In this document: piece after piece, positions 29,724-46,052 of the stretch
Numbering within the stretch: the first letter of the stretch is position 1
Layout: the number at the start of each line of letters is the position of its first letter
NCBI GenBank assembly: GCA_964589815.1
Contig: CAZPUR010000003.1
Span: forward strand, 42,554 to 106,553
Direction of reading: 5' to 3'
DNA: 64,000 nt
Source: an uncultured Pseudomonadales bacterium
GTDB lineage: Bacteria > Patescibacteriota > Microgenomatia > UBA1400
Translations under genes and position numbers: made by a program
Notes under the pieces: generated by a model
Seen by the model: only the letters and a program-made list of their open reading frames with translations
What the model was told of the DNA's origin: nothing
Databases searched by the model: none

Positions 29724-29730
29724 AGGAGAA

Positions 29731-30221: not shown

Positions 30222-30222
30222 T

Positions 30223-30354: not shown

Positions 30355-30371
30355 GACAGAAGGGAGGCAAT

Positions 30372-31028
30372 TTGGGTCAAAAAATTCACCCTTTCGGTTT
30401 TCGGTTGGGTAAACTTTACTCTTGGAAATCAAGATGGTTTGCCCAAAAACAGAATTACCAAAAGTTTTTATTAGAGGATTTTAATTTAAGAAAGTTTCTG
30501 GAAGACAAGCTCCAATTGGCGGGTTTGGTTAGAGCAGAAATTGAGCGTTCAATTAATACTATTAAGATTATTCTTTATGTTTCTCGTCCGGGAGTGGTTA
30601 TTGGTCGAGGCGGTTCCGGTCTGGAAACCTTGAAAAAAGAAATTAATAAAAAATTAAAAATTGATCCCAAAGACCCCAAGCAACTAAAAGTTGATTTGGA
30701 AGTCAGAGAGGTAAAAAATCCCGAGCTTTCAGCCCGATTAATAGCTCAAAGGATAGCCTTTCAGCTTAAAAAAAGGTATCCTCATCGTCGAGCGGTGGCT
30801 CAGGCAATGGAAAGAGTTATGGCCGCTGGTGCTAAAGGAGTAAAAATTGTTCTCGCTGGCCGAATCGCTGGCGCGGAAATTTCTAGAACAGAAAAGTATT
30901 CTAAAGGAAGGGTGCCTTTGCAAACCTTAAGAGCAGACATTGATTATGCTCAAATGCCAAGCCTGACCAAATCTGGCTATATTGGCATAAAAATTTGGAT
31001 TTATAAAGGAGAAGAAGAAGTTAAGTAA
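30372..31028 (+). CDS. rpsC: 30S ribosomal protein S3 (uS3), TTG start
   Basis: (M)GQKIHPFGFRLG is the canonical S3 N-terminus. SD GGGAGG sits 5 nt upstream. The caller's upstream extension is repeat-encoded. Confidence 0.93.
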   Translation: MGQKIHPFGFRLGKLYSWKSRWFAQKQNYQKFLLEDFNLRKFLEDKLQLAGLVRAEIERSINTIKIILYVSRPGVVIGRGGSGLETLKKEINKKLKIDPKDPKQLKVDLEVREVKNPELSARLIAQRIAFQLKKRYPHRRAVAQAMERVMAAGAKGVKIVLAGRIAGAEISRTEKYSKGRVPLQTLRADIDYAQMPSLTKSGYIGIKIWIYKGEEEVK

Positions 31029-31068
31029 AAGTTGACTATCAATAAACAACTTAATCAACTAAAAAACA
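31029..31068 (+). repeat. short copy (3' part) of the TTAAGTAGTTGATTA...CTATCAATAAACAACTTAATCAACTAAAAAACA family
   Basis: 31035-31068 is identical over 34 nt to 33058-33091 and ends at the rplP ATG. Confidence 0.8.
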
Positions 31069-31479
31069 ATGTTACAGCCAAAAAAATTAAAATACCGAAA
31101 GCATTTTCGTGGCACTAGAGCAGGAATAGCCACGGCCGGTAACGCTTTAGAGTTTGGTGAATATGGACTTAAAAGCTTAGGTAGGGGCTGGTTGAAAAGT
31201 GCTCAAATTGAGGCGGCTAGGAAAACAATAGCTCATTATACCAAAAGACAGGCTAAGCTTTGGATTAGAGTTTTTCCTGACAAAACTTATACCCAGAAAT
31301 CAGCTGGGAGCAGAATGGGGCAAGGAAAAGGCGATTTGCAGGGTTATGTAGCCGTAGTCAAACCAGGCCGGATTATTTTTGAGTTGGCAGGGGTAGAAAA
31401 AGAAATTGCCCAGGAAGCCATTAGACGGGCTGGTGCCAAATTACCTTTTAAAACGCGGTTTATAGAAAGAGAGCAGTAG
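31069..31479 (+). CDS. rplP: 50S ribosomal protein L16 (uL16)
   Basis: [15 protein letters not shown] start. Confidence 0.96.
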
Positions 31480-31502
31480 ACAAACGTTATTGAATATAAA
31501 AT

Positions 31503-31718
31503 ATGGCTAAAAAATCAAAAGCAGATAACAAGCTTGAATTACAAAAGCTCTCAATTCCCGAGCTTAACAAGTTGTTAAGACAAAGTCAGACAGAATGGCT
31601 AAAGCTAAAATTGGAACTGAAAACAGGTAAATTAAAAAACCTTCATCAGTCCAGACAAAAAAGAAAAGAGATTGCTCGGATTAAAACAATTATTAGAGAA
31701 AAGGAATTAGTAAAATAG
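31503..31718 (+). CDS. rpmC: 50S ribosomal protein L29 (uL29)
   Basis: Size, position and the [20 protein letters not shown] pattern. Confidence 0.88.
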
Positions 31719-31797
31719 AAATAAGTTCAAAAGTTCATTAAGTTCATAGAGTTAATAGTAAAAAATTACTCATAACTTGTTGAGCTCATAACTAATT
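31719..31797 (+). repeat. foldback spacer, GTTCATTAAGTTCAT family copy A1
   Basis: Alignable to 34454-34547 and 41368-41463. Ends ...ATAACTAATT directly at the rpsQ GTG. Confidence 0.75.
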
Positions 31798-32025
31798 GTG
31801 AAACAATTAACCGGTACAGTTGTCAGCATTAAGATGCAAAAAAGTGCGGTGGTCAAAGTTGACAGAACCTACCGTCATCCTTTATATAAAAAAACCATTA
31901 AAAAAAGTAAAAAATATTTAGTTGATAATCAACTTAAGGTTAAAAAAGGAGATAAAGTGATTATTCAAGAGTGCCGGCCAATAAGTAAGAGTAAGAGGTT
32001 TAGAATCATTAGAGTTATTAAGTAG
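31798..32025 (+). CDS. rpsQ: 30S ribosomal protein S17 (uS17), GTG start
   Basis: LTGTVVSIKMQKSAVVKVDRTYRHPLYKK pattern. Confidence 0.93.
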   Translation: MKQLTGTVVSIKMQKSAVVKVDRTYRHPLYKKTIKKSKKYLVDNQLKVKKGDKVIIQECRPISKSKRFRIIRVIK

Positions 32026-32173
32026 TGTATTAAGTAGTTGATTAGGTCCGACGCGATGGTCGGACCGTTAACTGATAGTTAACTGATAGTTTCTACCCAG
32101 TCAACGCGAGTCCTGACGTTACGTCGGGGCGAGCTAGTTAACCATAAATTAACTACTTAATTGACTATAAACG
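32026..32173 (+). repeat. foldback spacer, TTAAGTAGTTGATTA family copy with nested GC hairpins
   Basis: ATTAAGTAGTT (32030-40) is complementary to AACTACTTAAT near 32147-57. Nested GGTCCGAC-N6-GTCGGACC (32045-66) and CCTGACGTTACGTCGGGG (32112-29). (TTAACTGATAG)x2. Confidence 0.7.
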
Positions 32174-32548
32174 ATGATCCAATTACACACCATTTTAAAA
32201 CCAGCAGATAATTCTGGCGCCAAACGTTTAAGGGTGATTCATATCCATGGCGGCTCAACCCGCCCTTTTGGTTCTATTGGTGATATTACTACTTGTGCGG
32301 TTGACCAGGCTGATCCGCAGGGAATAGTTAAAGACTCACAATTGGTTAAAGTGGTTATCGTTAGAACCAAAAAAGAGATTAGAAGACCAGATGGTTCTTA
32401 TATTCGTTTTGATGATAATGCGGGTGTGGTGATCGAGAGTTTAAAAAATAAAGTGCCGGTGGGAACAAGAATTTTTGGTCCTATTGCCAGAGAGATAAAA
32501 GATTTAGGTTATAGCAAGATTGTTTCTATGGCATCGGAGGTGTTGTGA
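32174..32548 (+). CDS. rplN: 50S ribosomal protein L14 (uL14)
   Basis: [19 protein letters not shown] start. Confidence 0.96.
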
Positions 32549-32567
32549 TTCAAAGAATCACAACACC
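32539..32567 (+). repeat. perfect 13-bp hairpin (GGTGTTGTGATTC-AAA-GAATCACAACACC) containing the rplN stop codon
   Basis: Read directly. TGA at 32546-48 lies in the 5' arm. Confidence 0.8.
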
Positions 32568-32601
32568 CTGACCCCGTATTTATGCGGGAGAAGGATCTCA
32601 A

Positions 32602-32940
32602 ATGAAAAAGAATAAGCCAATTAGATTGAAAATGAAAATCCGCAAAGGAAATACTGTTAAAGTTATGGCTGGAAAAGATAAAGGTAAAACCGGCAAGGTG
32701 GAAAAAGTTTTACCTAAAGTTGCTGCAGTCTTAGTAGAAGGAGTTAATAAGTATAAAAAACATCTTAAACCCCAGGGTGAAGGTAAACCTGGTGGTATTG
32801 TAGAGATAAGTAAACCTTTACCTGTGGCTAATGTGGTTTTGCTCTGTCCCAAGTGCCAAAAACCAACCCGTGTGGGTTACCAAACAGACAGGAGTAATAA
32901 AAAATATAGAATTTGTAAAAAATGCAAGGAGGCAATATAA
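32602..32940 (+). CDS. rplX: 50S ribosomal protein L24 (uL24), with C-terminal CxxC..CxxC zinc-ribbon-like tail
   Basis: KGNTVKVMAGKDKGKTGKV KOW motif. Tail CPKCQKPTRVGYQTDRSNKKYRICKKC. Confidence 0.92.
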   Translation: MKKNKPIRLKMKIRKGNTVKVMAGKDKGKTGKVEKVLPKVAAVLVEGVNKYKKHLKPQGEGKPGGIVEISKPLPVANVVLLCPKCQKPTRVGYQTDRSNKKYRICKKCKEAI

Positions 32941-33091
32941 GTGTTAATTAAGTAGTTGATTAACTCGTTAACGCTCGTGTTAATTAGGTAGTTAATTAAC
33001 TAGTTTAATATAGTCCTATCAATCAACATGATCCGCCAGCTGGCGGAGAATAAATTAACTATCAATAAACAACTTAATCAACTAAAAAACA
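32941..33091 (+). repeat. foldback spacer, TTAAGTAGTTGATTA family, full copy
   Basis: 33015-33089 is identical over 75 nt to 41177-41251. TAGTTGATTA (32952-61) pairs with TAATCAACTA (33075-84). Carries palindrome TCCGCCAGCTGGCGGA (33032-47). Confidence 0.85.
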
Positions 33092-33646
33092 ATGAGTCGT
33101 TTACAACAAAAATACCAAAAAGAAATTGTTCCGGAGTTAAAAAAGGAATTTAAGATTAAAAATGATCTGGCTGTGCCTAAGGTAGCAAAAGTGGTACTTA
33201 ATGTGGGGATTGGCGAAATCGCTCATGATAAACAGGCTTTGGAAAAAGCCAAAAATACTTTAGCGGCCATTACCGGTCAGAAACCTTTAATTCGTCCGGC
33301 CAAAAAAGCAATTGCTGATTTTAAGATTAGAAAAGGCAATTCAGTCGGTCTTAAAGTAACTTTAAGAAGGAAAAGAATGTATGATTTTTTAGATAAACTA
33401 TTCTCTTTGGTTTTACCCTTGGTGCGTGATTTTCAGGGAGCTAAGCAGAATGCCTTTGATCAAGATGCCAATTATACCTTAGGCTTAAAAGAGCAGGTTA
33501 TTTTTCCTGAGGTGGACTATGATAAAATTGACAAGGTTCGAGGGATGGAGATTAGTATTGTTATCTCGACTAAAGACAAGAAAAAAGCAGCTAGATTGTT
33601 AGAATTAATGGGAATGCCGTTTACTAAGGAGGAATTAGGAAATTAG
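33092..33646 (+). CDS. rplE: 50S ribosomal protein L5 (uL5)
   Basis: SRLQQKYQKEIVPELKKEF start and the NVGIGE region. Confidence 0.95.
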   Translation: MSRLQQKYQKEIVPELKKEFKIKNDLAVPKVAKVVLNVGIGEIAHDKQALEKAKNTLAAITGQKPLIRPAKKAIADFKIRKGNSVGLKVTLRRKRMYDFLDKLFSLVLPLVRDFQGAKQNAFDQDANYTLGLKEQVIFPEVDYDKIDKVRGMEISIVISTKDKKKAARLLELMGMPFTKEELGN

Positions 33647-33653
33647 GATAAAA

Positions 33654-33705
33654 GTGATTAGTCAAAAAAAGACTAATCACTAATCACTAATCACTAATCA
33701 CTAAA
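33654..33705 (+). repeat. 10-bp perfect hairpin (GTGATTAGTC-A7-GACTAATCAC) followed by (TAATCAC)x4
   Basis: The heptamer array 33674-33701 places TAA in all three frames just before the S14 start position. Confidence 0.8.
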
Positions 33706-33891
33706 ATCGCTAAAGTTTCTAAATTTGCTAAACAGCAAAAAAAACCAAAATTTTCTAGCCGGAAGCACAACCGCTGTAAAATTTGCGGTCGACCCAGGGC
33801 CTATATTAGGCTTTTTGGCCTTTGCCGTTTATGTTTTCGTCAAATGGCCCATAAAGGAGAATTACCAGGGGTAACTAAAGCCAGCTGGTAA
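33706..33891 (+). CDS. rpsZ: 30S ribosomal protein S14 type Z (uS14), apparent ATC start
   Basis: Absent from the ORF track. Own translation: (I)[60 protein letters not shown]. 61 codons, CxxC..CxxC, collinear with Zn-type S14. No ATG/GTG/TTG in frame after the stop at 33688-90. Confidence 0.85.
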
Positions 33892-34034
33892 GCTTTAAAG
33901 AAATGACCAAATTACAAATCACAAATTCCAAACAATATCAAAACACCAAATTCAAAATCCAAAACTGTTTTGAATTTGAATATTTGAATTTAGGATTTAT
34001 TTGTCATTTGGTATTTGGTGCTTGGAATTTAAGC
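33892..34034 (+). repeat. foldback spacer, ACCAAAT/ATTTGGT family copy C2
   Basis: Base pairs GCTT/AAGC (33892-95 / 34031-34), ACCAAAT/ATTTGGT (33906-12 / 34013-19), and further pairing along the arms by manual tracing. Confidence 0.75.
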
Positions 34035-34054
34035 ATTAGTGAACGGAGTGAACA

Positions 34055-34453
34055 ATGCTGACAGATCCTATTGCTGATATGTTAATCAGAATCAAAAATG
34101 CCTGCTTGGCTAAGAAAAACCAGGCAGTACTGCCTTATTCTAAAATCAAAGAAAAAATCGCTAAAATTTTTCTTAGTCAAGGCTATCTTAATCAGGTTAA
34201 AAAAGAAAGCTTAAAGAATAAACAAGGAGAGGTTTTGATTTGTGACTTAAAGTATGAAAAAAACAGTTCAGTTATAAGAAACATACAAAGGGTTTCCAAA
34301 CCAGGGATGAGGGTTTATTTATCTTGGAAAAAATTACCCAGGCCTAGTTTTGGTATGGGGATAAGTATTATTTCTACCTCTAAAGGGTTAATGACCAATG
34401 CTGAGGCAATTAAGAAGAGACTAGGAGGAGAAGTAGTCTGTAAAATTTGGTAA
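34055..34453 (+). CDS. rpsH: 30S ribosomal protein S8 (uS8)
   Basis: MLTDPIADMLIRIKNA start. Confidence 0.96.
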   Translation: MLTDPIADMLIRIKNACLAKKNQAVLPYSKIKEKIAKIFLSQGYLNQVKKESLKNKQGEVLICDLKYEKNSSVIRNIQRVSKPGMRVYLSWKKLPRPSFGMGISIISTSKGLMTNAEAIKKRLGGEVVCKIW

Positions 34454-34547
34454 ATAAAGAGAAATAAGAAAAGAGTTCATTAAGTTCATGGAGTTAATAG
34501 TAAAAAAAATTACTCATAACTCATAACTTGTTGAACTAATAACTAAT
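34454..34547 (+). repeat. foldback spacer, GTTCATTAAGTTCAT family copy A2
   Basis: GAGTTAAT/ATTACTC top stem and GTTCAT units opposite ATAAC units. Ends ...ATAACTAATT at the rplF TTG. Confidence 0.75.
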
Positions 34548-35102
34548 TTGTCTAAAGTTGGAAAGCAACCTATTAAAATACCCGAAGGAGTAACGGTTGA
34601 GATTAAACCTAGTCAAGTGATCGTTAGTGGTCCCAGGGGAAGTTTGACTCAGGAAATCAGGTCGGAGATAAAAGTTGAAAAAAAGGAAAACCAGATTTTA
34701 GTTCAACCAAACTCGCAAAGTAAACTGGTTAAGTCTTTACACGGTTTACTAAGAAGCCTGATTGCCAACATGATTCAGGGAGTGACTAAAGGTTTTGAAA
34801 AAACTTTAGAACTACAGGGAGTCGGCTACCGCGTCAATTTAGAACAGGAAAATTTAACCTTAGCTTTAGGTTTTTCTCATCCGGTAGTAGTTAAACCACC
34901 TGAAGGAATTAAATTTCAGGTAGAAGGCAATAATTTGATTAGAGTTTTAGGTATTGATAAACAATTAGTTGGTCAGATAGCCGCTGGAATTAGAAGGATT
35001 AGACCGCCGGACAGCTACAAAGGCAAAGGCATAAGATACGAGGGTGAAGTGATTAAGTTAAAGCCTGGCAAGGCGGCCAAGACAGAAGCAGCCGCAACAT
35101 AA
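34548..35102 (+). CDS. rplF: 50S ribosomal protein L6 (uL6), TTG start
   Basis: (M)SKVGKQPIKIPEGV is the canonical L6 N-terminus. Confidence 0.95.
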   Translation: MSKVGKQPIKIPEGVTVEIKPSQVIVSGPRGSLTQEIRSEIKVEKKENQILVQPNSQSKLVKSLHGLLRSLIANMIQGVTKGFEKTLELQGVGYRVNLEQENLTLALGFSHPVVVKPPEGIKFQVEGNNLIRVLGIDKQLVGQIAAGIRRIRPPDSYKGKGIRYEGEVIKLKPGKAAKTEAAAT

Positions 35103-35114
35103 GGAGTCTAAATA

Positions 35115-35528
35115 ATGATTAAACGTTACAAGCATAAAACGCTTAAAAGAAAAATCAAGATCAGGGCCAAACTTTTGAAAATAGGTCGAAGACCCAGGTT
35201 ATCTGTTTTTCGTTCTAATAAATATATTTATGCCCAGATTATTGATGACCAAAAAGGAAAAACACTGGCGGCGGCTAGTGAAAAAGACATAAAAGAAAAC
35301 TCCAATCCGCCAGCTGGCGGACCAAAACTCCCCCGACCTCGCCTCGGCTCGGCCGAGGGCGGGCAAAACTCCAAGATTAACAGAGCGTTTCAGGTGGGTC
35401 AAATCTTGGCCAAGAAAGCCTTAAAAATAAAGATTAAAAAAGTATATTTTGACCGCGGCGGCTATAAATATCATGGCCTGATTAAAGCCTTAGCTGAGGG
35501 TGCCAGAAAAGGAGGACTGGAGTTCTAA
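35115..35528 (+). CDS. rplR: 50S ribosomal protein L18 (uL18) with a 23-codon GC-rich insertion
   Basis: RLSVFRSNKYIYAQIIDD and GGYKYHG motifs. Insertion NPPAGGPKLPRPRLGSAEGGQNS. Confidence 0.93.
   Translation: MIKRYKHKTLKRKIKIRAKLLKIGRRPRLSVFRSNKYIYAQIIDDQKGKTLAAASEKDIKENSNPPAGGPKLPRPRLGSAEGGQNSKINRAFQVGQILAKKALKIKIKKVYFDRGGYKYHGLIKALAEGARKGGLEF
35295..35371 (+). repeat. two adjacent GC palindromes, each bounded by the 8-nt direct repeat AAAACTCC (three copies)
   Basis: AAAACTCC at 35295, 35323 and 35364. Cores TCCGCCAGCTGGCGGA (35305-20) and CCCGACCTCGCCTCGGCTCGGCCGAGGGCGGG. Periods 28 + 41 = 69 nt. Confidence 0.85.
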
Positions 35529-35582
35529 TCCGCCAGCCTCGCTGAGCGGGGCCAGCTGGCAGACTAATTCCTAATTTCTAAA

Positions 35583-36071
35583 ATGCAAAGACAGAGACAG
35601 AGAGAATTTGATAATAAGCAATTCTGGGGCAAGAAGGAATTTGAAGAAAAGGTAGTTCAAGTTAAAAGAGTTTCAAAGAAAACTAAAGGCGGTAATCAAA
35701 TTAGATTTACAGCTTTGGTAGTAGCAGGGAATAAAAAGGGGAAGGTAGGCGTGGGCTTAGGTAAAGCCCCAGATGTTCTATCAGCCATTCAAAAAGGCAC
35801 CCGTTTAGCCAAAAAAAATCTGATTAATGTTCCTATACAAGCAGGAACCATCAGCCATGATGTTTATGTTAAAAGGGGGGCGGCTAAAGTTTTATTAAGG
35901 TCTGCGCCCGAGGGTACGGGTGTGATTGCTGGCGGGCCGGTAAGATATGTAGTTGAGGCAGCTGGAGTGAGGAATATTGTTTCTAAAATTTTAGGCACCA
36001 AAAATAAAGCTAGCAATATTTATGCCACTATAGAGGCATTGAAGCAGTTAAAGAGGAGAAAGGATAAATGA
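35583..36071 (+). CDS. rpsE: 30S ribosomal protein S5 (uS5)
   Basis: VVQVKRVSKKTKGGNQIRFTALVVAGN pattern. Confidence 0.95.
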   Translation: MQRQRQREFDNKQFWGKKEFEEKVVQVKRVSKKTKGGNQIRFTALVVAGNKKGKVGVGLGKAPDVLSAIQKGTRLAKKNLINVPIQAGTISHDVYVKRGAAKVLLRSAPEGTGVIAGGPVRYVVEAAGVRNIVSKILGTKNKASNIYATIEALKQLKRRKDK

Positions 36072-36700
36072 AACTCAACAAACTATCCCAAACAACCAAA
36101 ACAACCAAAAAAAGAGTTGGCCGCGGTTATGGTTCAGGCAAGGGCGGTCATACAGCTGGTCGAGGCCAGAAAGGCCAAAAATCACGAAGTAAAGTAGGCT
36201 TGCTTTTTGAAGGCACGAAAATGCGCAAGTCTTTAATCAGGCGTCTACCAATGCAGAGAGGCAAAGGTAAATTTAAGTCTTTTAAAAGCAAACCAATTAT
36301 TTTGAATGTTAAATATTTGAATCTTTTGAAAAGTGGGACTAAAGTAGATGTGGAAGTTTTAATTAAAGAAGGTTTGGTGGCCAAAGAAGCCTTAACCTTA
36401 GGAATGAAAATTCTAGGTGATGGGGTTTTAGAGAAGAAACTGACAGTAGTTTTGCCAGTTTCTCAGGGAGCCAAGAAAAAAATCGAAAAAGCTGGAGGCA
36501 AGGTGATAAACGCGAAAGACGCTAAAAAAAGAGAGGCGAAAAAACCTAAAATTCGTAAGCAGATTAAAAAATCACAAAAATCCTCAAAGACCAAAGAAAC
36601 CAGAACTACCCGAAAAAAACCAACCACAAAAACTAAAATAAAAAGAGGCAGTCCCGCCTTGACTCAGACTCGGCGAGGCAGGCAAAAAAAAACTAAATGA
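36068..36700 (+). CDS. rplO: 50S ribosomal protein L15 (uL15) with a long Lys-rich C-terminal extension
   Basis: [28 protein letters not shown] motif. Overlaps rpsE by 4 nt, so no rpmD between them. Confidence 0.93.
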
Positions 36701-37986
36701 ATCGCATTCTTCAGCCCATTATCAACGCCTTTAAGGTTTCCGAACTGAGAAAGAAAATTGTTTTTACCTTGCTAATGTTCATTGTTTTCAGGTTGACAGC
36801 CCATATTCCCGTTCCTGGAGTTGACCTGGAAGCTTTAAAAATGCTTTTTTCCCGTAATCAATTTTTAGGCCTTTTAGATATTTTCTCTGGCGGTACTTTA
36901 ACCAATTTTTCCATTATTGCCATCGGCCTTTCTCCCTATATTAACGCTTCCATTATTTTACAGCTTTTAACTATGGTTTTCCCCAAATTAGAAGAATTAA
37001 GTAAAGAGGGTGAATTAGGAAGAGAAAGAATTAATCAATACACTCGTTTTTTAACCATTCCTTTAGCTATTTTTCAGTCCGTGGGAATGATGGCGATTTT
37101 AAAAAAGCAGCAGATTTTTACCAGCTTAAATTTTCTCAATCTGGGTTTAATTGTGGTAACCATGACCAGCGGTTGTTTATTTTTAATGTGGTTAGGAGAA
37201 CTGATTACCCGTTATGGAATTGGTAACGGTATTTCTTTATTGATTTTTGGTGGGATTGTGGGTCGTCTACCGGTTTCTTTAGCGCAAACAGTTTCTTTAG
37301 TGGAAACAGTTAGTTTTTTTAATCTCTTGGTTTTTGTGGTTATGGCGATTGGGGTTATCGCCGCCATTTGTTTTGTCAATGAAGCCCAAAGGCAAATTAC
37401 AGTTTCTTATGCCCGCAGGGTTCAGGGCCGAAAGATGTATGGCGGTTCCAGTACTCATCTGCCTTTAAGAGTAAATCAAGCAGGAGTTATTCCTATTATT
37501 TTTGCTGTTTCTTTGGTCTTGATTCCCAATATGCTGGCCACTTGGTTGCAGACCTTGCCTAATCAAAAACTGGCCAATTTGGCCGTTTTTATGGCTCGGC
37601 TTTTTGATCCTCAAAGCCTTTTTTATAATCTTTTTTACTTTCTACTGGTAATTGCTTTTACTTATTTTTATACCGCCGTCACTTTTAATCCTGAAAAAAT
37701 CGCCGAAGAAATTAAAAAACATGGCGGTTTTATTCCAGGCATTAGACCCGGCAAACCTACGGCCGAGTACCTGAATTATATTTTAACCCGGATCACTTTG
37801 GCTGGCGCAGTTTTTTTAGGTCTGGTGGCGATTTTACCTTCTCTAGCCCGAGTTTTAACCGGCGTCACCACCATGATGATTGGCGGCACTGGTATTTTAA
37901 TCGTGGTTTCAGTCATTTTAGAAACCAGCAAATCTTTGGAAGCTCAACTTTTAATGAGAAATTATGATGGATTTTTAAAGGAGTAA
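36697..37986 (+). CDS. secY: preprotein translocase subunit SecY
   Basis: 429-aa polytopic protein with SecY motifs ([23 protein letters not shown]). Confidence 0.96.
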
Positions 37987-38136
37987 ATTTTCAATTTTCA
38001 AATCCCAATTTTCATTGAATTTTCAAATCCCAATTTTCAAACTGCATTTAAAAAGATCAAAAAAGTTTGAGAATTAAAAAATTGTAAATTAATTATTCAT
38101 TGTAAATTGAAAATTGTTAAATTGAAAATTAAAATT
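37986..38136 (+). repeat. foldback spacer between secY and adk with (ATTTTCAAATCCCAATTTTCA)x2
   Basis: 37986-38001 pairs with 38122-38136 (15 bp, one bulged C at 37992) by manual pairing. The helix base joins the last nt of the secY TAA to nt -1 of the adk ATG. Confidence 0.75.
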
Positions 38137-38727
38137 ATGTACATAATTTTCTACGGTCCTGAAGGTTCAGGTAAAACCACCCAGGCCAAATTGCTGGCCG
38201 AAAAATTAAACCTGCCTTATTTAGGTTCAGGCGATTTAGTCCGCCATTATGCTGCCCGGGATAAAGGCATTATGGGTGATGTTTGCCGCGAAGCCTTATC
38301 CATCGGCCATTATGTGCCTGATTCAGAAATGTTTGTTTTATGGAAACAGCGTTTAAAAGAGTCGGATGTCCAAAGTGGTTGGATTTTAGATGGTTTCCCG
38401 CGCAACGACACTCAAGCAGATTTTTTAGATGATAAATTAGATAAATATGGAAAAAAAGTAGATGCGGTTTTTTATATCAAAGTTAAGGAGAGTACTTCGA
38501 TTAAACGTCTGACCAAACGCGGCCGCCGCAATCCGGATGGCAGTTTACATGATGATCCTAAAAAAGTCCGGGAGAGACTGCGGATTTATAAAAAGGGCGA
38601 AAAGGGTGTTTTAGATTTATATAAGAAAAGAGGCGTCTTGTATGCTATTGATGGCGAGCCCAGCATTGAGCAGATTCACAAAGAGGTTTTACAGAGGGTA
38701 GAAAAACTGACTCTGGCGTCATCCTGA
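38137..38727 (+). CDS. adk: adenylate kinase
   Basis: MYIIFYGPEGSGKTTQAKLLAEKL P-loop start. The caller's TTG at 38107 lies in the repeat arm. Confidence 0.92.
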   Translation: MYIIFYGPEGSGKTTQAKLLAEKLNLPYLGSGDLVRHYAARDKGIMGDVCREALSIGHYVPDSEMFVLWKQRLKESDVQSGWILDGFPRNDTQADFLDDKLDKYGKKVDAVFYIKVKESTSIKRLTKRGRRNPDGSLHDDPKKVRERLRIYKKGEKGVLDLYKKRGVLYAIDGEPSIEQIHKEVLQRVEKLTLASS

Positions 38728-38743
38728 GCGCAGCGTAGGATCT
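38718..38743. repeat. GTCATCCTGAGCGCAGCGTAGGATCT repeat overlapping the adk stop codon
   Basis: The adk TGA (38725-27) is the TGA inside the GTCATCCTGA motif. Confidence 0.75.
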
Positions 38744-38745
38744 AT

Positions 38746-39444
38746 ATGAAAATTCTTAAAAAAAACTTACAAATCGCTATTGATGGATTAGTTGGCGCCG
38801 GCAAAAGTGTCGGCGCTCATCGTTTGGCCCAACGTTTAGGGATTTTGTATGTTTATACTGGCGCCATGTATCGGGCGACTGCTCTTTTAGGCATTCAAAA
38901 CAACACTGATCTTAAAGACGAAGCCAAACTTATAGCTTTGTTAAAAAAAAGCACCATTAAACTAATGCCTGCTTCCAAAAAAAGCCGGGTTTGCGATGTT
39001 TTTATTGACGCTAAGGACGTGACCGATGAACTCTTTTCTTCTCAAGTGAATTGGGGATCTTCAGTCGTAGGTCTTTTGCCCAGGGTAAGAAAATATTTGG
39101 TTAAACTTCAGCAGGAAATTGCTAAAGGTCAGGCAGTGGTCATGGAGGGCAGAGATATTACCACCGTAGTTTTGCCCCAAGCTGACCTCAAAATTTTTCT
39201 GACAGCTGAGCTTAAAATTAGAGCCAAAAGAAGACTTAAAGACTTGCGCCAAAGAGGAGAAAAAAAGACCTTAGAACAAGTGATTGAGGAAACAGTTAAA
39301 AGAGATTACCAAGATTCGCACCGTCAAGCTGATCCCCTAAGAATTGTCAAAGGCGCTTGGGTTTTAGACACTAGCAACCTTACCATTGATCAAGAAGTAG
39401 ATCTGATGATCAAACGCCTAAAAGCCAAGAAACTAGTTAGTTAG
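38746..39444 (+). CDS. cmk: cytidylate kinase
   Basis: IAIDGLVGAGKSVGAHRLAQRLG and GRDITTVV motifs. Confidence 0.9.
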   Translation: MKILKKNLQIAIDGLVGAGKSVGAHRLAQRLGILYVYTGAMYRATALLGIQNNTDLKDEAKLIALLKKSTIKLMPASKKSRVCDVFIDAKDVTDELFSSQVNWGSSVVGLLPRVRKYLVKLQQEIAKGQAVVMEGRDITTVVLPQADLKIFLTAELKIRAKRRLKDLRQRGEKKTLEQVIEETVKRDYQDSHRQADPLRIVKGAWVLDTSNLTIDQEVDLMIKRLKAKKLVS

Positions 39445-39445
39445 C

Positions 39446-40246
39446 ATGAAAATTCCTATAAAAACTCCTCAGCAAATTCAAATTATGAAGCAAGGTGGCT
39501 ATAAGCTGGGTCGGATTTTAGGTCAGCTAGTTAAAATGGCCCAGCCTGGAGTTAACCTTTTAGATATTGAAAAAAAAGCGATGGTTTTAATTAAAAAAAC
39601 TGGAGGAGAAGCTGGATTTGCCCGGGTACCTAATTATCATTGGGCCACTTGCCTTAATATTAATGAGGAAATTGTTCATGGTGTTCCTAAAGATTATTTA
39701 CTTAAAAGCGGTGATGTTTTAAATATAGACATTGGTTTATATTACCGAGGCTTTAATACAGATATGAGCAGTACCATTTATATAAAAAATCCTCGTCATC
39801 CTGAACTCGTTTCAAGATCTATAAAAAAATTCCTTTCTACTGGTAAAAAAGCTCTCCAAGAAGCTATCAAACAAGCTCAACCTGGCAATCGGGTCGGTCA
39901 TATTTCCCAAAAAATTCAAGAGATTATAGAAGGAGCTGGTTATTCTTGCGCCCGTACTCTTACTGGCCATGGAATTGGCAAACAATTGCATCAGCCGCCT
40001 TCGATTCCCTGTTTTCTTAGGGATTCAATAGAAGAAACGCCCATTTTAAAAGAAAAAATGGCTCTGGCAATTGAGGTGATTTATTGTCTGGGAAAACCAG
40101 AGTTAGTGATTGATCCTCAAGATAGATGGACAATTAGAACCAAAGATGGTCGGTTAACGGCAGTTTTTGAAAAAACTATCGCTGTAACTGAAAAAGGGCC
40201 AGTAATTATCACTCCGTTTGAGGGAAAAGAGTCCCATAATATTTAA
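39446..40246 (+). CDS. map: type I methionine aminopeptidase with a 13-codon repeat-derived insertion
   Basis: VHGVP, DIGLYYRGFNTDMS, GHGIG and AIEV metal-site motifs. Confidence 0.94.
   Translation: MKIPIKTPQQIQIMKQGGYKLGRILGQLVKMAQPGVNLLDIEKKAMVLIKKTGGEAGFARVPNYHWATCLNINEEIVHGVPKDYLLKSGDVLNIDIGLYYRGFNTDMSSTIYIKNPRHPELVSRSIKKFLSTGKKALQEAIKQAQPGNRVGHISQKIQEIIEGAGYSCARTLTGHGIGKQLHQPPSIPCFLRDSIEETPILKEKMALAIEVIYCLGKPELVIDPQDRWTIRTKDGRLTAVFEKTIAVTEKGPVIITPFEGKESHNI
39781..39830 (+). repeat. GTCATCCTGAACTCGTTTCAAGATC element flanked by the direct repeat TATAAAAAA, in-frame in map
   Basis: Direct repeats at 39781-89 and 39820-28, period 39 nt. Encodes NPRHPELVSRSIK. Confidence 0.85.
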
Positions 40247-40283
40247 CAGAAGGTAGAGTTGGGATATAATATATTTTATTATT

Positions 40284-40454
40284 ATGGAAGAAAAGATAAA
40301 AATAAGGAGTTCCCTTACTCTTCATGCTCCAGAAGGTAACGTAAAAACAGTTCCTATAAGAGAAGGGGGTTTAAAATGGTTGGCCCAAGCAGCTGATAAG
40401 AGGATGCAAAGATTGCGTGATGAGGGGGCAACTCCTGAAAGCAATCCTTTTTAG
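40284..40454 (+). CDS. hypothetical 56-aa protein (possibly the 5' part of a frameshifted gene)
   Basis: Own translation MEEKIKIRSSLTLHAPEGNVKTVPIREGGLKWLAQAADKRMQRLRDEGATPESNPF. TATAAT at 40265-70 upstream. Below the ORF-track size cutoff. Confidence 0.4.
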   Translation: MEEKIKIRSSLTLHAPEGNVKTVPIREGGLKWLAQAADKRMQRLRDEGATPESNPF

Positions 40455-40498
40455 AAGATTTAAATAGCCTTATACATGTAAGTGGGCAGCCGTTTCCT

Positions 40499-40753
40499 TT
40501 GGAACCACTTGAACCCTCAGGGGAAGAGATATTTGTAGAGAAAGCAGTAAATATTGTTGGTGAAGTAATGGCAGTAATAGAATCAGTTGATGATTCAACT
40601 CTTCCTAAATGGCAAAGAGCGCTTTTAAAAACACCAGAAGGAGAAGAGCAACTTCGAGACTTAAAAATTCAGGCTTTTGACCAGATGGCTAGTTTAATTA
40701 GAGAGGGTCTTGGGCTTAGTGAAGGAGAGAGTATTTTGGAGCTGTTGGATTAA
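40499..40753 (+). CDS. hypothetical acidic 84-aa protein (frame is open upstream to 40443)
   Basis: ORF-track entry with a TTG start and no SD. Its frame is the -1 frame of ORF 40284..40454 and opens 12 nt before that ORF's stop. Confidence 0.4.
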   Translation: MEPLEPSGEEIFVEKAVNIVGEVMAVIESVDDSTLPKWQRALLKTPEGEEQLRDLKIQAFDQMASLIREGLGLSEGESILELLD

Positions 40754-40860
40754 GACTAATTATATTCAAGCTATCAGGCTAGACAATTAGAGCCACTTCT
40801 GATAAAATAACCCTGTTATTATAAACCATCGCTATTATGGTGATGGTTGTTTAGTTTTGC

Positions 40861-40889
40861 TTGTTAACAGGCTAATTTTTTGCTAAAAT
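40861..40889 (+). promoter_or_regulatory. putative infA promoter (TTGTTA, 17 nt, extended -10 TGcTAAAAT)
   Basis: The -10 ends 11 nt before the ATG at 40901. Confidence 0.5.
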
Positions 40890-40900
40890 AGTTTCAATTT

Positions 40901-41119
40901 ATGTCACAACCCAAAGGAGAAGTAGTTGAAGGCGAAGTTTTAGAAGCTTTGCCTAATGCTATGTTTCGGGTTAAAACGACCGAAGGACAATTGTTGCTTT
41001 GTACTTTATCAGGCAAAATGAGAATTAATCGGATTCGGGTTTTGCCTGGAGATCAAGTCAAGCTGGAAACTACTCCTTATGATGAAACTAGGGGTAGAAT
41101 TGTTTATAGAACCAAGTAA
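40901..41119 (+). CDS. infA: translation initiation factor IF-1
   Basis: [33 protein letters not shown]...[12 protein letters not shown] (S1-like IF-1 pattern). Confidence 0.96.
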
Positions 41120-41253
41120 ATATAGTTATTAAGTGGTTGATTAGCTCGCAACGCTCGCGTTAATTAGGTAGTTAATCCTATCAATCAACATGATCCGCCA
41201 GCTGGCGGAGAATAAATTAACTATCAATAAACAACTTAATCAACTAAAAAATC
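41120..41253 (+). repeat. foldback spacer, TTAAGTAGTTGATTA family, second full copy
   Basis: 41177-41251 is identical to 33015-33089. Lacks ~18 nt present in the other copy. Ends at the rpmJ ATG. Confidence 0.85.
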
Positions 41254-41367
41254 ATGAAAGTCAAAGCCTCAGTTAAAAAACGATGTAAAAAATGTAAGGT
41301 AGTAAAGCGCCGCGGCCGCATTTATATTGTTTGTAGTAATAAGCGCCATAAGCAAAGACAAGGATAA
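41254..41367 (+). CDS. rpmJ: 50S ribosomal protein L36 (bL36)
   Basis: Absent from the ORF track (37 aa). Own translation [37 protein letters not shown]. Confidence 0.95.
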
Positions 41368-41463
41368 AAAAGAGAAATAAGAAATAAGTTCATTAAGTTA
41401 TTAAGTTAATAGTAAAAGAAAAAAATTACTAATAACCAATAACCTGTTGAACCAATAACTAAT
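41368..41463 (+). repeat. foldback spacer, GTTCATTAAGTTCAT family copy A3
   Basis: GTTATTA pairs perfectly with TAATAAC where copy A2 has GTTCAT/ATAAC with a bulged C. Ends ...ATAACTAATT at the rpsM TTG. Confidence 0.75.
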
Positions 41464-41883
41464 TTGCCTAGAATATCCGGGGTTAACTTACCAGAACAGA
41501 AAAAAATAAAAATTGCTTTACAAAGCATTTATGGTATTGGTAAAAAAAATAGTTTTTTAGTTCTTAATCAAGCCCAAATAGACCCGGAGAAAAGAACTGA
41601 AGATTTAAATGATCAAGATATGGTGAGATTGCAAAAAGCGGTCGAAGCCATTCCTATGGAGGGAGCTTTAAGGAAAGTGGTCATGGAGAATATTAAACGG
41701 CTTAAACAAATAAATACTTATCGAGGTTTAAGACATGTGGCCAACCTGCCGGTTCGAGGACAAAGGACTCGTGTTAACGCTAGAACCAAAAGGGGCAAAA
41801 GAGTTACTGTGGGAGCGATGAAAAAAGAATTAGCCCAAAAACTAGAAGGAGCCCGGAAAATTAAAGGCCAGGAGGAGAAATAA
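41464..41883 (+). CDS. rpsM: 30S ribosomal protein S13 (uS13), TTG start
   Basis: (M)[25 protein letters not shown] is the canonical N-terminus. Confidence 0.95.
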
Positions 41884-42245
41884 TGGAAAGAAAAGCTAGA
41901 ATTGAGAAAGGCAGAATTTATATCAATGCTACTTTTAACAACACTTTAATCACGGTGACTGATGATAAAGGGAATACCATTGTTTGGGGTTCAGCAGGAA
42001 CGGCTGGTTTTAAAGGAGCGAGAAAATCAACTCCTTTTGCCGCCATTAGTGCCATAGAAAAAGTTATCAAAAAAGCCACCAGCGCTGGTCTAAATCAAGC
42101 CCAGTGCTTTATTAAAGGGCCAGGTTCGGGAAGAGATGCAGCCTTAAGGGTTTTAAGAGGCAGCGGTATCAGAATTTCTATGATTGCCGATGTTACTCCT
42201 ATTCCTCATAATGGCTGCCGACCTAAGAAAAGGAGAAGGGTCTAA
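41883..42245 (+). CDS. rpsK: 30S ribosomal protein S11 (uS11)
   Basis: [18 protein letters not shown] and [13 protein letters not shown] motifs. Confidence 0.96.
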
Positions 42246-42865
42246 TGGCTAAATATACAGACGCAAAATGTAGACTTTGTCGCCGCGAAGGCGAAAAATT
42301 GTTCTTAAAAGGCGAACGTTGTTATTCTACCAAGTGCCCGATTGAAAAAAAAGGAGCGGTATCCCCAGGAGTTCACGGTCCTAGAAGAAGGGGTAAAGTT
42401 TCAGAATACGGTCTTCAATTAAGAGAAAAACAGAAGGCCAAAAGAACTTATGGGATTTTAGAAAGACAATTTAAAAATTATTTTAAAAAATCCTCTACTC
42501 AGAAAAAAGATACTGGTTTGAGATTACTACAGCTGTTGGAGACTAGGTTGGATAATGTGGTGTTTCGGGGCGGGTTGCTTTTTTCTCGCTCTTCGGCTCG
42601 GCAGGTAATCCGTCATGGTTTTTGTTTGGTAGATGGTAAAAAAGTAGATATACCTAGTTTCTCAGCTAAGCCAAGCCAGATAGTTAGCTTGAACTCCAAA
42701 GGATTAAAAATTAAAGAGGTCAAAAGCGCTTTGGCCGCTAAAATTGATATTCCTAAATGGTTAAAAAGAAAAGCCGCTCTGGTTAAAGTTGAGCGCCTGC
42801 CAGAAAGAGAAGAAATGGAAAAAAATATTAATGAACAATTAATTATTGAGTTTTATTCTCGATAA
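42245..42865 (+). CDS. rpsD: 30S ribosomal protein S4 (uS4)
   Basis: AKYTDAKCRLCRREGEKLFLKGERC start. S4 RNA-binding domain. Confidence 0.96.
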   Translation: MAKYTDAKCRLCRREGEKLFLKGERCYSTKCPIEKKGAVSPGVHGPRRRGKVSEYGLQLREKQKAKRTYGILERQFKNYFKKSSTQKKDTGLRLLQLLETRLDNVVFRGGLLFSRSSARQVIRHGFCLVDGKKVDIPSFSAKPSQIVSLNSKGLKIKEVKSALAAKIDIPKWLKRKAALVKVERLPEREEMEKNINEQLIIEFYSR

Positions 42866-42881
42866 AAAGAAGGAGGTTTAA

Positions 42882-43799
42882 ATGTTAAAACCCACTTTTA
42901 AAATTACTGCTCTCAAAAAAAAGAAAGATTACGGCAAGTTTGTTTTGGAACCCTTGCCTCAAGGTTATGGTGATACCCTCGGCAATTCTTTACGTCGTTG
43001 TCTTTTAGGTAGTTTGCCCGGAGCCGCCATTACTCGAGTTAAAATCGATGGTATCCGTCACCAGTTTTCCACCTTGCCTGGTTTGAAAGAAGACATGGTG
43101 GAGTTGATTTTAAACTTAAAACAGGTGAAGGTAATTTATCAAGGCAAGAAAGAAGTTAAAGCCATCCTCGAAACCAAAGGTTCAAAGGTAATTAAGGCTG
43201 GCGATATTAAAGCTCCGCCTGAGGTAGAAATTATCAATAAAGACCTATATTTAGCTACTTTAACAGACAGCAAGTCAAAATTAAAAATAAGCCTATGGGT
43301 TAGTTCTGGATTTGGTTATTCACCGGCGGAGGAAAGAAAATCAAGCACTTTAGGGATTATTCCGGTTGATGCCAGTTTTTCCCCGGTTTTGAGGGTTAAT
43401 TACAATGTTAAACCGACTCGTCTTGGCCGCCGGACTGACCTTGATAAGCTAATTTTTGAAATCTGGACTGACAGCAGCGCTAAACCAAAAGAAATTTTAG
43501 AATACGGCGCTAAAGTTTTGGTTAAGTTCTTTAGGCAGATTTACAAACCAGTATTTGCCGCCAAAGAGAAAAAGAAAGAAGTTAAAGATGAAAATAATGA
43601 ACTGATGAATTTGACGGTGGAAGAATTAGATTTGCCTACCAGAATTGCCAACGCTTTGCGTCGGGGTGGTTTTGGCACAGTTAAGGGTTTAGTCAAAGTG
43701 AAAAAGGATGACATTGCCAAAGTTAAAAACTTAGGTAAAAAATCCATTGATATCATTTATCAGAAGTTGGCTAAAAAAGGAGTAGGGGTTAAATTATGA
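42882..43799 (+). CDS. rpoA: DNA-directed RNA polymerase subunit alpha
   Basis: GKFVLEPLPQGYGDTLGNSLRRCLL and C-terminal LDLPTRIANALRR. Confidence 0.95.
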   Translation: MLKPTFKITALKKKKDYGKFVLEPLPQGYGDTLGNSLRRCLLGSLPGAAITRVKIDGIRHQFSTLPGLKEDMVELILNLKQVKVIYQGKKEVKAILETKGSKVIKAGDIKAPPEVEIINKDLYLATLTDSKSKLKISLWVSSGFGYSPAEERKSSTLGIIPVDASFSPVLRVNYNVKPTRLGRRTDLDKLIFEIWTDSSAKPKEILEYGAKVLVKFFRQIYKPVFAAKEKKKEVKDENNELMNLTVEELDLPTRIANALRRGGFGTVKGLVKVKKDDIAKVKNLGKKSIDIIYQKLAKKGVGVKL

Positions 43800-44197
43800 G
43801 ACATCGGAAAAAGATGAAAAAATTAAATCGTAATACTAAGCAAAGAAAAGCCTTATTCAAAAACTTAATTAGGGCTTTAGTTATCCATGAAGAAATCAAG
43901 ACCACTTTACCTAAAGCTAAAGCAGTTAAAAGGCTAGTTGATAAGCTGGTCACTAGGGCCAAAGCAGGTAGCTTGCATGCCAGAAGGCAAATTATGGCTT
44001 TTTTACCGGATAAAAAAGCAGTTAATAAATTATTTGATGAAATCACCTTGCGTTTTAAAAAAAGAAGCAGCGGTTTTACCCGTTTTGTTCGTTTGGGCAA
44101 AAGACGAGGTGATGATGCCATGATGGTGAAATTGTCCTGGGTGGAAAAAAATAAAGTAGGAGAGATAGAGAAGGTAGAGAAAAGTAGAAAAGGGTAG
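43796..44197 (+). CDS. rplQ: 50S ribosomal protein L17 (bL17)
   Basis: MRHRKKMKKLNRNTKQRKALFKNL start. Confidence 0.95.
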   Translation: MRHRKKMKKLNRNTKQRKALFKNLIRALVIHEEIKTTLPKAKAVKRLVDKLVTRAKAGSLHARRQIMAFLPDKKAVNKLFDEITLRFKKRSSGFTRFVRLGKRRGDDAMMVKLSWVEKNKVGEIEKVEKSRKG

Positions 44198-44200
44198 AAT

Positions 44201-44230
44201 CAGCCAGAGGCTGATCGTCCTTTGGACGAA
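44201..44230 (+). repeat. double-hairpin element CAGCCAGAGGCTGATCGTCCTTTGGACGAA abutting the rplM ATG
   Basis: CAGCC-AGAG-GCTG and TCGTCC-TTTG-GACGA. Near-identical copy at 55036-55066. Confidence 0.8.
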
Positions 44231-44644
44231 ATGAAAACAAAAATTACCAGAGCCAAAGACATCAAAAGAAGTTGGCACTTAGTTGATCTTGAAGGTCAAA
44301 TTTTAGGCAGGCAGGCCAGTAAAATAGCTCAACTTTTGATGGGTAAAAACAAAGTTTATTATACGGCTGCTTTGGATTGCGGTGACTATGTGGTAGCTAT
44401 TAACGCCGCCAAGATCCAAGTCACTGGTAGAAAAAACCAGCAGAAAATGTATTTCCGCCATTCAGGTTATCCTGGGGGTTTGAAAAAATTGACTTTTAGC
44501 CAGCTTTTAAAGAAAGATCCCAGAAAAATTATTGAATTGGCGGTCAAAAATATGCTGTCCAAAAATAAACTGCGGGACCCGCGTTTAGCTCGGCTCAAAG
44601 TTTTTCCTGGCCCAGAACATGATTATAAGGATAAATTTAAATAA
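44231..44644 (+). CDS. rplM: 50S ribosomal protein L13 (uL13)
   Basis: MKTKITRAKDIKRSWHLVD start. The caller's TTG at 44222 lies in the repeat. Confidence 0.94.
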   Translation: MKTKITRAKDIKRSWHLVDLEGQILGRQASKIAQLLMGKNKVYYTAALDCGDYVVAINAAKIQVTGRKNQQKMYFRHSGYPGGLKKLTFSQLLKKDPRKIIELAVKNMLSKNKLRDPRLARLKVFPGPEHDYKDKFK

Positions 44645-44647
44645 ATT

Positions 44648-46046: not shown

Positions 46047-46052
46047 CAAAGA

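Follow-up and report, generated by a model that had tools for sequence, protein, structure and literature searches.

The secY-adk Junction

The 64,000-nt stretch of contig CAZPUR010000003.1 analyzed here (the window) carries on its + strand an S10-spc-alpha ribosomal-protein cluster, and the subject of this analysis is the junction in that cluster at which secY is followed by adk. The window has 37% G+C, and its nearest genomes are metagenome-assembled genomes of Microgenomates (Candidatus Beckwithbacteria and Shapirobacteria), with SecY identities of 55-83%. The final two sense codons of secY, AAG GAG, are themselves a Shine-Dalgarno (SD) motif, which abuts the secY stop codon and now lies 153 nt from the adk ATG; nearly all of that distance is taken up by an AT-rich sequence predicted to fold back on itself (Table 1). 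A 6-nt SD match of this kind has a background of 0.9% per 12-nt coding window.

A first-pass annotation, made from the letters of the window, had placed the SD, the secY stop and the adk start at these positions and had noted that no SD precedes the ATG. Direct reading and the open reading frame (ORF) listing agree on all three positions, and a scan of the 18 nt upstream of 38137 found no SD, nor any match of at least 4 nt to AAGGAGGTGA at -18 to -3. SDs of the AGGAGG type are present at compact junctions of the same window (tuf, rplR, rpoA); the 16S rRNA 3' end lies outside it. The Adk N-terminus MYIIFYGPEGSGK, conserved in about 20 homologues, fits ATG 38137 as the start. An in-frame TTG at 38107 was rejected, because it would add 10 repeat-derived residues that are absent from every homologue.

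The 150-nt spacer is identical in one JGI and two independent Logan assemblies (L001, L002, and L003), and this agreement among three independent assemblies rules out an assembly artefact. Both Logan contigs begin at window position 37985, the 5' end of the foldback, an indication that this hairpin or repeat interrupts assembly.

Empty and Filled Sites in Relatives

The secY-adk junction was gathered from about 45 relatives, and two of them, L066 and L061, retain it in a form that is identical to the window minus 37990-38136, namely GGATTTTTAAAGGAGTAAATT followed directly by ATGTACATAATTTT. The window therefore equals L066 plus a 147-nt insert, and the insert splits a canonical ribosome-binding site (RBS) consisting of the SD, 6 nt, and the ATG. 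As judged from these aligned sequences, the comparison shows that insertion or expansion divided an ancestral RBS of textbook form, with an SD overlapping the end of secY. Other compact relatives are organized in the same way: the arrangement is AAGGAG-TAAATT-ATG in L066 and L061, AAGGAG-TAATATT-ATG in L062, AGGAG-AAAATT-ATG in L055, and AGGAG-TAAATT-ATG in L006. The distance from SD to ATG is 6-8 nt in the compact L062, L055, L059, and L006, and across these four together with L004, L005, L027, L028, and L051 a strong SD stands 3-8 nt from the start. Relatives with a compact junction (L066, L061, L062, L055, L006) do, then, keep the SD at a normal distance from the adk start, as the first-pass reading of a displaced SD would lead one to expect.

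Homologous inserts are represented by three sequences, that of the window, that of L022, which is clearly homologous, and that of L023, which is more diverged. Between the window and L022 the SD plus stop is identical at 12/13 positions, the 5' arm at 16/16 and the 3' basal region at 34/34; in the foldback interior, identity is 70-86% with a 27-nt indel, and the flanking genes are saturated at their four-fold degenerate sites (50/139 identical in secY, 15/34 in adk). The SD and the base of the helix are thus conserved above neutral expectation in this pair. Further, secY of L022 terminates before the AAGGAG, so the motif has been kept there without coding constraint. The AAGGAG is also retained in L023, in which four double changes from C-G to U-A maintain the fold; the paired fraction of cells is 93%, as compared with 27-59% for slid partners, and 13/500 shuffles reach the observed covariation.

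The same junction holds at least five unrelated foldbacks (the window/L022/L023 type and those of L024, L052, L032, and L058). An SD-like motif is found at the 5' foot in L024 (GAAGGG), L052 (AAAGGAG), and L032 (GAGAGG), and none of the three has one at the ATG. A distant clade (L012, L021, L040, L043) adds further variants of the junction. In the Adk identity matrix, filled sites are interspersed with empty ones: the closest relative of the window is L055, which is empty, and the closest to L022 are L058 and L061. The Adk identity of L058 is 75% by pairwise alignment and 77% by database search. The 16-mer AATTTTCAATTTTCAA recurs at another junction in L039 and at the secY-adk junction of the distant L040. 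L056 has a 24-nt intermediate made of AAAATT repeats that forms no hairpin, and junction lengths among the relatives can be arranged in a growth series of 4, 11, 24, and 124-150 nt, which suggests local expansion as much as transposition. The AAATT repeat that flanks the insert may represent either a target-site duplication or microhomology from slippage, although as a low-complexity string it is trivial in AT-rich repeats.

Predicted Fold of the Insert

AATTTTC-like units make up the 5' half of the insert and GAAAATT-like units its 3' half, with Tandem Repeats Finder periods of 7, 14, and 15. Among the inverted repeats, I1 has arms at 37986-38014 and 38108-38136 (29 nt, 72%) and I6 is perfect over 12 nt (100%). 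The segment from stop to start has a minimum free energy (MFE) of -26.5 kcal/mol and a z-score of -4.33, none of 60 dinucleotide shuffles being as stable; the z-score of the - strand is -4.42. A fold that included the coding flanks had given z = -1.21, and chance structure was considered on that ground. It was rejected on the score of the stop-to-start segment alone; the weaker value arose because the GC-richer coding flanks entered the shuffle.

The favoured basal helix consists of 12 perfect pairs with pairing probabilities (P) of 0.76-0.99 in three sequence contexts. It leaves unpaired UA on the 5' side and AAAAUU (38131-36) on the 3' side, that is, 8 nt between the SD and the AUG. The first-pass annotation had drawn a different helix, of 15 bp with one bulged C, between 37986-38001 and 38122-38136. 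Folding predictions do support a basal helix, and the 15-bp version can be drawn; it is not the predicted fold, the 3' side of which is shifted by 6 nt. When enforced, this alternative register reaches -25.3 kcal/mol, 1.2 kcal/mol worse than the free MFE, and its P is at most 0.08 when the spacer is folded by itself and 0.00 when the coding flanks are included. Likewise, the third base of the stop codon, which had been paired with nucleotide -1 of the ATG (38136), has 38130 as its favoured partner. A local palindrome that spans the ATG (pairing 38131-40 with 38141-50) abuts the basal helix and competes with the alternative register; since it occurs in relatives without the insert as well (AAATTATGTACATAATTT in L066), it is ancestral. 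Inside the foldback, the duplication that had been described as a 21-nt unit is present, its length being 25 nt, with 24/25 matches between the copies at 37990-38014 and 38015-38039. Allowing up to 3 mismatches, no further copy of the unit was found in the 64 kb of the window.

Boltzmann sampling places the SD no more than 12 graph steps from the AUG in 89% of structures, against a mean of 8% when the spacer is shuffled in place, and 1/80 shuffles reaches the value of the window. The corresponding figures for L022 are 97% and 28%, with 2/80 shuffles reaching the observed value.

Table 1. Features of the secY-adk junction and its foldback insert (window coordinates)
Feature	Position	Strand	Basis and remarks
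secY	36697..37986	+	429 aa, upstream cistron; ORF listing; PF00344 SecY (identical locus L001)
AAGGAG, ancestral adk Shine-Dalgarno	37978..37983	+	Direct reading; same motif 6 nt from ATG in L066, L061
secY stop TAA	37984..37986	+	Third base opens the predicted basal helix (direct reading, ORF listing, fold)
AAATT flanking direct repeat, 5 nt	left 37985..37989, right 38132-38136	+	Direct reading, filled/empty-site alignment
Favoured basal helix, 5' arm AAUUUUCAAUUU	37986..37997	+	MFE, base-pair probabilities, three contexts
147-nt insert relative to empty-site relatives	37990..38136	+	Filled/empty-site alignment; AT-rich foldback
Direct repeat, 25 nt x2, TTCAATTTTCAAATCCCAATTTTCA and TTGAATTTTCAAATCCCAATTTTCA	37990..38039	+	Family D2, 96%
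Apical hairpin, AATTTTCAAACT and AGTTTGAGAATT	38032..38075	+	12-nt arms, 20-nt loop (I9; MFE structures)
3' tandem array, ATTGAAA x5.4, 15-nt unit x2.2	38099..38136	+	Offers multiple pairing registers
Promoter-like TTGAAA-17-TAAAAT	38107..38135	+	Unlikely to serve adk
Favoured basal helix, 3' arm AAAUUGAAAAUU	38119..38130	+	Base-pair probabilities
Alternative register, 3' arm	38122..38136	+	15 bp with 37986-38001, bulged C37992; AUG flush with helix
Local palindrome AAAATTATGT/ACATAATTTT, spans ATG	38131..38150	+	I10; P 0.6-0.97
adk	38137..38727	+	196 aa, downstream cistron; PF00406 ADK; start ATG 38137

A Candidate Split Ribosome-Binding Site

The reading that we favour runs as follows. A 147-nt foldback has inserted or expanded exactly between the AAGGAG, thereby stranded, and the adk ATG. 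In the mRNA the insert would fold, its basal helix (37986-97/38119-30) starting at the last base of the secY stop, and the 153 nt that separate the SD from the AUG would be cut to 8 unpaired nt (UA and AAAAUU) and one helix end; the alternative register would shorten the path to 2 nt. A 30S subunit held at the SD would then reach across the hairpin base and bring the AUG into its P site, and a ribosome that had just terminated at the adjoining secY stop may do likewise. The insert would consequently be tolerated and the old SD would remain in use, making the junction a split RBS of the type known from genes 38 and 25 of phage T4, with an intervening structure about 6 times longer.

Three of the features by which a split RBS of the T4 type is recognized, namely a distant SD, no alternative SD and a bridging structure, are found here, the last as a prediction; retention of SD and structure in relatives that have the long spacing gives a mixed picture. 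On this model the ribosome would make use of the bridged SD, and we put the probability that the stranded SD still serves adk across the base of the foldback at roughly 0.45. The structure most likely persists since only inserts whose ends pair leave adk translatable, and the foldback was probably not built as a regulatory device.

Foldback Spacers Across the Ribosomal-Protein Operon

The secY-adk spacer is one of many. Among window operon spacers of at least 45 nt, 16/17 have z < -2, and close relatives have 0-10 nt at the junctions that hold these long spacers, frequently with no SD; where a compact junction is SD-less, translational coupling follows. The foldbacks of the ribosomal-protein operon in this Microgenomates lineage are a fast-turnover class of repeats that fills many junctions formerly 0-10 nt long. 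Several belong to multi-copy families within the window (D1 at 33011/41173, 96%; D9, 97%; D2; D17).

A census of SDs at 344 annotated junctions from about 40 loci found a start-proximal SD at 67/102 overlapping junctions versus 21/88 long ones. In the long spacers without an SD, the main helix begins a median of 5 nt past the stop and ends a median of 6 nt before the start; these medians cover all such spacers, the energy-based filter for structure having passed nearly all of them. To a large extent the values follow from the way the spacers arose, the ancestral gaps that the inserts fill having been very small. Start codons other than ATG follow 25/88 spacers of at least 45 nt, against 24/256 shorter junctions (the window plus L004-L053). 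For rplF and rpsM, the window has TTG as the start codon and every compact relative has ATG.

A related observation concerns rpsN (S14 type Z, 33706-33891), which has no in-frame canonical start after the preceding stop. The sole codon that lines up with the start used by relatives (TTG, GTG, or ATG) is an ATC directly after an (ACTAATC)n array, which suggests that rpsN initiates at a non-canonical ATC.

A junction similar to secY-adk is rpsS-rplV (29721-29837), in which AAGGAG comes right after the rpsS stop, then a foldback, then a TTG. An AAGGAG directly at the 5' foot is found at these two window junctions only; rplX-rplE has AAGGAGG 14 nt before its spacer. The rpsS-rplV SD is not inherited, given that the compact relatives L069 (1-nt spacer) and L068 (37 nt) have no SD there. 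The first-pass annotation had taken the resemblance between the two junctions as a sign of convergent, selected design, and this interpretation is not supported: the SD at secY-adk was inherited and then stranded by the insertion rather than born with the hairpin, and 16/17 long spacers are structured, yet about 10 of them lack an SD at either foot, as does the foldback of L058. Strand asymmetry is inconsistent. The spacer of rpsS-rplV folds with -36.7 kcal/mol on the mRNA strand versus -16.9 on the other, and secY-adk of L023 with -25.2 versus -12.1, both favouring the mRNA strand by way of G.U pairs, whereas secY-adk of the window favours the antisense strand.

Nearly every long spacer of the operon is a significantly stable foldback, as seen at 26814-26960, 27522-27626, 29724-29834, 30222-30371, 31719-31797, 32026-32173, 32941-33091, 33647-33705, 33892-34054, 34454-34547, 35529-35582, 41120-41253, and 41368-41463. 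The z-scores of long operon spacers run from -2 to -8.4, and spacer arms often consist of short repeats in tandem that complement each other, such as (ATTGTTAC)n with (AGCAATGA)n, or ACTAATC x4.7. The dispersed families reach 96-97% identity, each is flush with a start codon, and one copy lies outside the ribosomal-protein operon. One family is flush with the starts of rplE, rpmJ, and rplP (33011-33095, 41173-41257, and 31029-31072), another with those of rpsQ, rplF, and rpsM (31731-31797, 34482-34548, and 41398-41464), and others are found at rplM and in the recA region (44199-44232 and 55034-55067) and as a pair at 34004-34031 and 61866-61893. The secY-adk junction of L052 carries the family of 31731.

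A small-scale parallel to a split SD is seen at rplC-rplD of L068, a Beckwithbacteria relative (187-225), which reads TAA-GGAGGAG-AT, a hairpin of about 10 AU-type base pairs, TTAAAACC, and ATG; the same junction in L069 has a 1-nt spacer and no SD. Upstream of fusA, a G+C-richer spacer of 336 nt (22751-23086) contains several hairpin-like segments, with no ORF and no Rfam match. For follow-up, the operon-wide foldbacks and their association with missing SDs and non-ATG starts outweigh the single secY-adk junction.

Weighing the Bridged Site Against Alternative Explanations

A number of observations weigh against use of the stranded SD. Across the 344 junctions, most long spacers without a start-proximal SD are also SD-less at their 5' edge, so that SD bridging is not the general logic of foldbacks, and the census rejects an SD at the 5' foot as a general rule for them. 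About 10 structured spacers of the window are SD-less at both feet; L058 has a 122-nt foldback at secY-adk itself with no SD at either foot; L056 tolerates an unstructured SD-ATG gap of 19 nt; and in the distant clade of L012, L021, L040, and L043, adk has no adjacent SD at long or compact junctions. Recent spread or recombination may account, as much as selection, for the near-identity of the element between the window and L022; the two are not each other's closest relatives.

The predicted folds raise difficulties of their own. In a folded RNA segment of any kind the two ends tend to be near each other, and the SD-AUG proximity in L023 is not above that of shuffles (10/80). The AUG is placed in the local hairpin with a P of 0.6-0.97, and the SD is itself largely paired (predicted 0.79), no better than in shuffles. 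Moreover, the antisense strand of the window spacer folds better than the sense strand (-32.7 versus -26.5 kcal/mol), as it does in L022, and the imperfections on the mRNA strand are C.A mismatches rather than G.U pairs, so there is no sign of selection on the sense RNA here. Selection on the sense strand, as read from the asymmetry between G.U and C.A, thus fails at secY-adk; it holds for rpsS-rplV and for L023.

Many of the same observations would be expected if the foldback were a selfish or neutral repeat, either a mobile hairpin or a palindromic tandem expansion, and the AAGGAG a relic. In that case adk would be translated independently of an SD, by reinitiation from the secY stop, which lies 6-7 nt from the AUG across the hairpin base, or by SD-independent initiation on an A/U-rich leader. 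This is the strongest of the alternatives, and we consider it somewhat unlikely. The foldbacks that lack an SD, in L058 and at about 10 places in the window, fit it directly, as do the placement of the main helix close to stop and start in SD-less spacers, the enrichment of non-ATG starts behind long spacers, and the 2-8-nt SD-less AT spacers that compact relatives show at many junctions (coupling). The repeat-like behaviour of the inserts also agrees with it: presence and absence are interleaved among close relatives, unrelated foldbacks have come to occupy the same site, sister families are multi-copy in the window, L056 records stepwise growth by AAAATT tandem units, and the two strands fold equally well, suggesting a palindrome at the level of DNA.

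Several points count against a relic. Every compact close relative has a strong adk SD, which implies that adk is SD-dependent in this clade, and L022 keeps AAGGAG outside coding constraint. Where the motif is coding and the insert present (the window and L023) the codons are AAG GAG, as opposed to AAA GAA or AAA GAG in the compact L006 and L013, although this point is tempered by the compact L055, L061, and L066, which also have AAG GAG. Nor is there, in the 64-kb window, a second copy of the element or a transposase.

The hairpin might instead be an element of mRNA processing, stability, or expression tuning, serving as an entry site for RNase Y or RNase III, protecting the 3' end of secY, or setting the secY:adk ratio, with the SD-AUG proximity incidental. 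Stable structures at stop codons affect termination and 3' decay, REP elements being an example, and the hairpin here begins at the secY stop codon. The highly expressed ribosomal-protein operon is where structured spacers cluster, some of them strongly favour the sense strand (rpsS-rplV and secY-adk of L023), and RNase Y is encoded in the window (56897-58435). Set against this, the foldbacks are hypervariable and often absent in close relatives, so that no cleavage site or motif is conserved, no Rfam family matches, and adk initiation is left unexplained. We regard such a role as improbable as the explanation of the junction; it is compatible with the bridged SD rather than exclusive of it. 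An intrinsic terminator was not found in 37987-38136, the foldback being AU-rich with no U tail. Rfam 15 gave no match at E <= 1 in 26000-45500 and none at the gathering score in the whole window. The gathering-threshold scan missed even the tRNAs: ARAGORN calls tRNA-Cys and tRNA-Pro at 13989-14062 and 45976-46047.

Finally, a promoter for adk inside the spacer (TTGAAA-17-TAAAAT or a neighbouring variant), giving a leaderless or short-leader mRNA for which the SD would be irrelevant, deserves very little credence: it matches the sigma-70 consensus at 10/12 positions, its hexamers are conserved in L022, and the real promoters of the clade look sigma-70-like (infA), but only 1 nt separates the -10 hexamer from the ATG, which would put a normal start, 6-8 nt downstream, within adk, no in-frame Met follows before the P-loop, promoter-like sites are not enriched over shuffles (5 in 3 kb versus 7.3 +/- 3.3), both hexamers arise incidentally from the TTGAAAA repeat unit, and the TGn extension seen at infA is missing. 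The infA promoter itself, TTGTTA-17-TGC-TAAAAT at 40861-40889, is conserved in L004, L005, L006, L013, L023, and L027; it sits about 11 nt before the infA ATG, a position that implies a very short leader.

Implications

If the bridged SD is used, secY-adk would be the first cellular, chromosomal split RBS and would have by far the longest intervening structure (about 135 nt versus about 15-20 nt), and the 30S subunit would have to accommodate a large hairpin protruding between the SD and the P site. If, instead, a selfish hairpin is tolerated and adk is reached by SD-independent reinitiation, interest shifts to how coupling survives a gap of 150 nt. In addition, a compact, coupled operon that has been filled with hairpin repeats, with clear filled and empty sites among relatives, is a natural experiment on which insertions a polycistronic mRNA tolerates. 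There are also consequences for annotation in the candidate phyla radiation, as models of starts and RBSs that are limited to 20 nt upstream will misjudge such genes.

More broadly, it is conceivable, and in our view decidedly speculative, that in some Microgenomates the junctions of the ribosomal-protein superoperon have been colonized by self-propagating foldbacks of complementary heptamer-type arrays, and that ribosomes routinely initiate across the bases of 80-250-nt hairpins, from a stranded SD or after termination at the adjacent stop, as a bacterial counterpart of ribosome shunting. Shunt-like initiation, if true, would explain why genes behind these spacers dispense with a nearby SD and often with AUG.

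Comparison with Known Systems

The eukaryotic ribosome provides precedents for such jumps in the shunt on the cauliflower mosaic virus (CaMV) 35S leader and in TURBS-type reinitiation, for example at influenza B M1/BM2. We know of nothing comparable that has been established for the bacterial 70S ribosome over structures longer than 100 nt. The likeness lies in the layout: an upstream stop at the foot of the stem, a start past the other foot, and an rRNA-complementary motif just upstream of the stop. At secY-adk the third base of the stop is the first paired nucleotide, and the helix is followed by the AUG after 6 nt in the favoured register and after 0 nt in the alternative one. Shunting by a bacterial ribosome is one possible reading of this predicted geometry.

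Mycobacterial intercistronic repeats of the MIRU type preserve coupling through a small bridging ORF, and the present foldbacks resemble them in colonizing operon junctions in a manner compatible with downstream translation. They differ in having no bridging ORF, and compatibility would come from RNA folding. The only ORF in the spacer (38015-38077, 20 aa) reaches neither of the flanking genes, neither secY at its stop nor adk at its start, and a bridge of the MIRU type was rejected on that basis.

Several families of palindromes are known between the genes of operons, including REP/BIME, ERIC, Correia/NEMIS, RUP/BOX, the Rickettsia RPE, and MITE-like elements. The secY-adk insert is an imperfect palindrome, as MITE and REP elements are, and shares with REP-, ERIC-, and Correia-type repeats its size of about 100-150 nt, its co-transcribed place between cistrons, presence/absence polymorphism, multi-copy sister families, and a flanking AAATT. 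Unlike them, its arms are arrays of short tandem repeats with no unique consensus, and nearly every junction differs. With up to 3 mismatches allowed, the 64-kb window holds no dispersed copy of either arm, and there is no other copy of the element in viral contigs. Similarly, no transposase or RAYT was found among 20 non-ribosomal window proteins scanned against Pfam, the window being a small fraction of the genome.

Arrays of 7-nt units in transcribed intergenic DNA are also a feature of the STRR repeats of cyanobacteria and of the TAACTGA heptamers which are reported as abundant intergenic direct repeats in Beggiatoaceae (PMC4679880). The arrays of the present spacers differ in that complementary pairs of them fold back between cistrons and the units vary by junction. 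Two TAACTGA units are present in an 11-nt tandem repeat at 32067-32091 of the window.

In function, the closest systems are the split RBSs of T4 (Nivinskas et al. 1999; Malys and Nivinskas 2009, as reviewed in PMC3014915), where hairpins reduce the SD-AUG spacing from 22 to 5 nt in gene 38 and from 27 to 11 nt in gene 25, as confirmed by mutation and probing (PMC3014915). There, as at secY-adk, the SD is linearly too distant from the AUG, a stem-loop stands between the two in an intercistronic setting, and the structure is present in some relatives only; the bridging predicted here, from 153 to about 8 nt plus a helix end, falls in the range spanned by these two T4 genes. The differences are that the intervening structure is a repeat-built foldback of about 135 nt rather than about 15-20 nt, known here from sequence and predicted folds, that it lies in a cellular operon and not in a phage, and that it is present, absent or replaced by unrelated foldbacks among relatives, one of which (L058) has no SD. 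A literature search found only the T4 precedent and no description of such spacers in Patescibacteria. By structure, then, the nearest known systems are the REP-, ERIC-, and Correia-type repeats, and by function T4 genes 38 and 25, with foldback elements that have tandem-repeat arms as a loose parallel.

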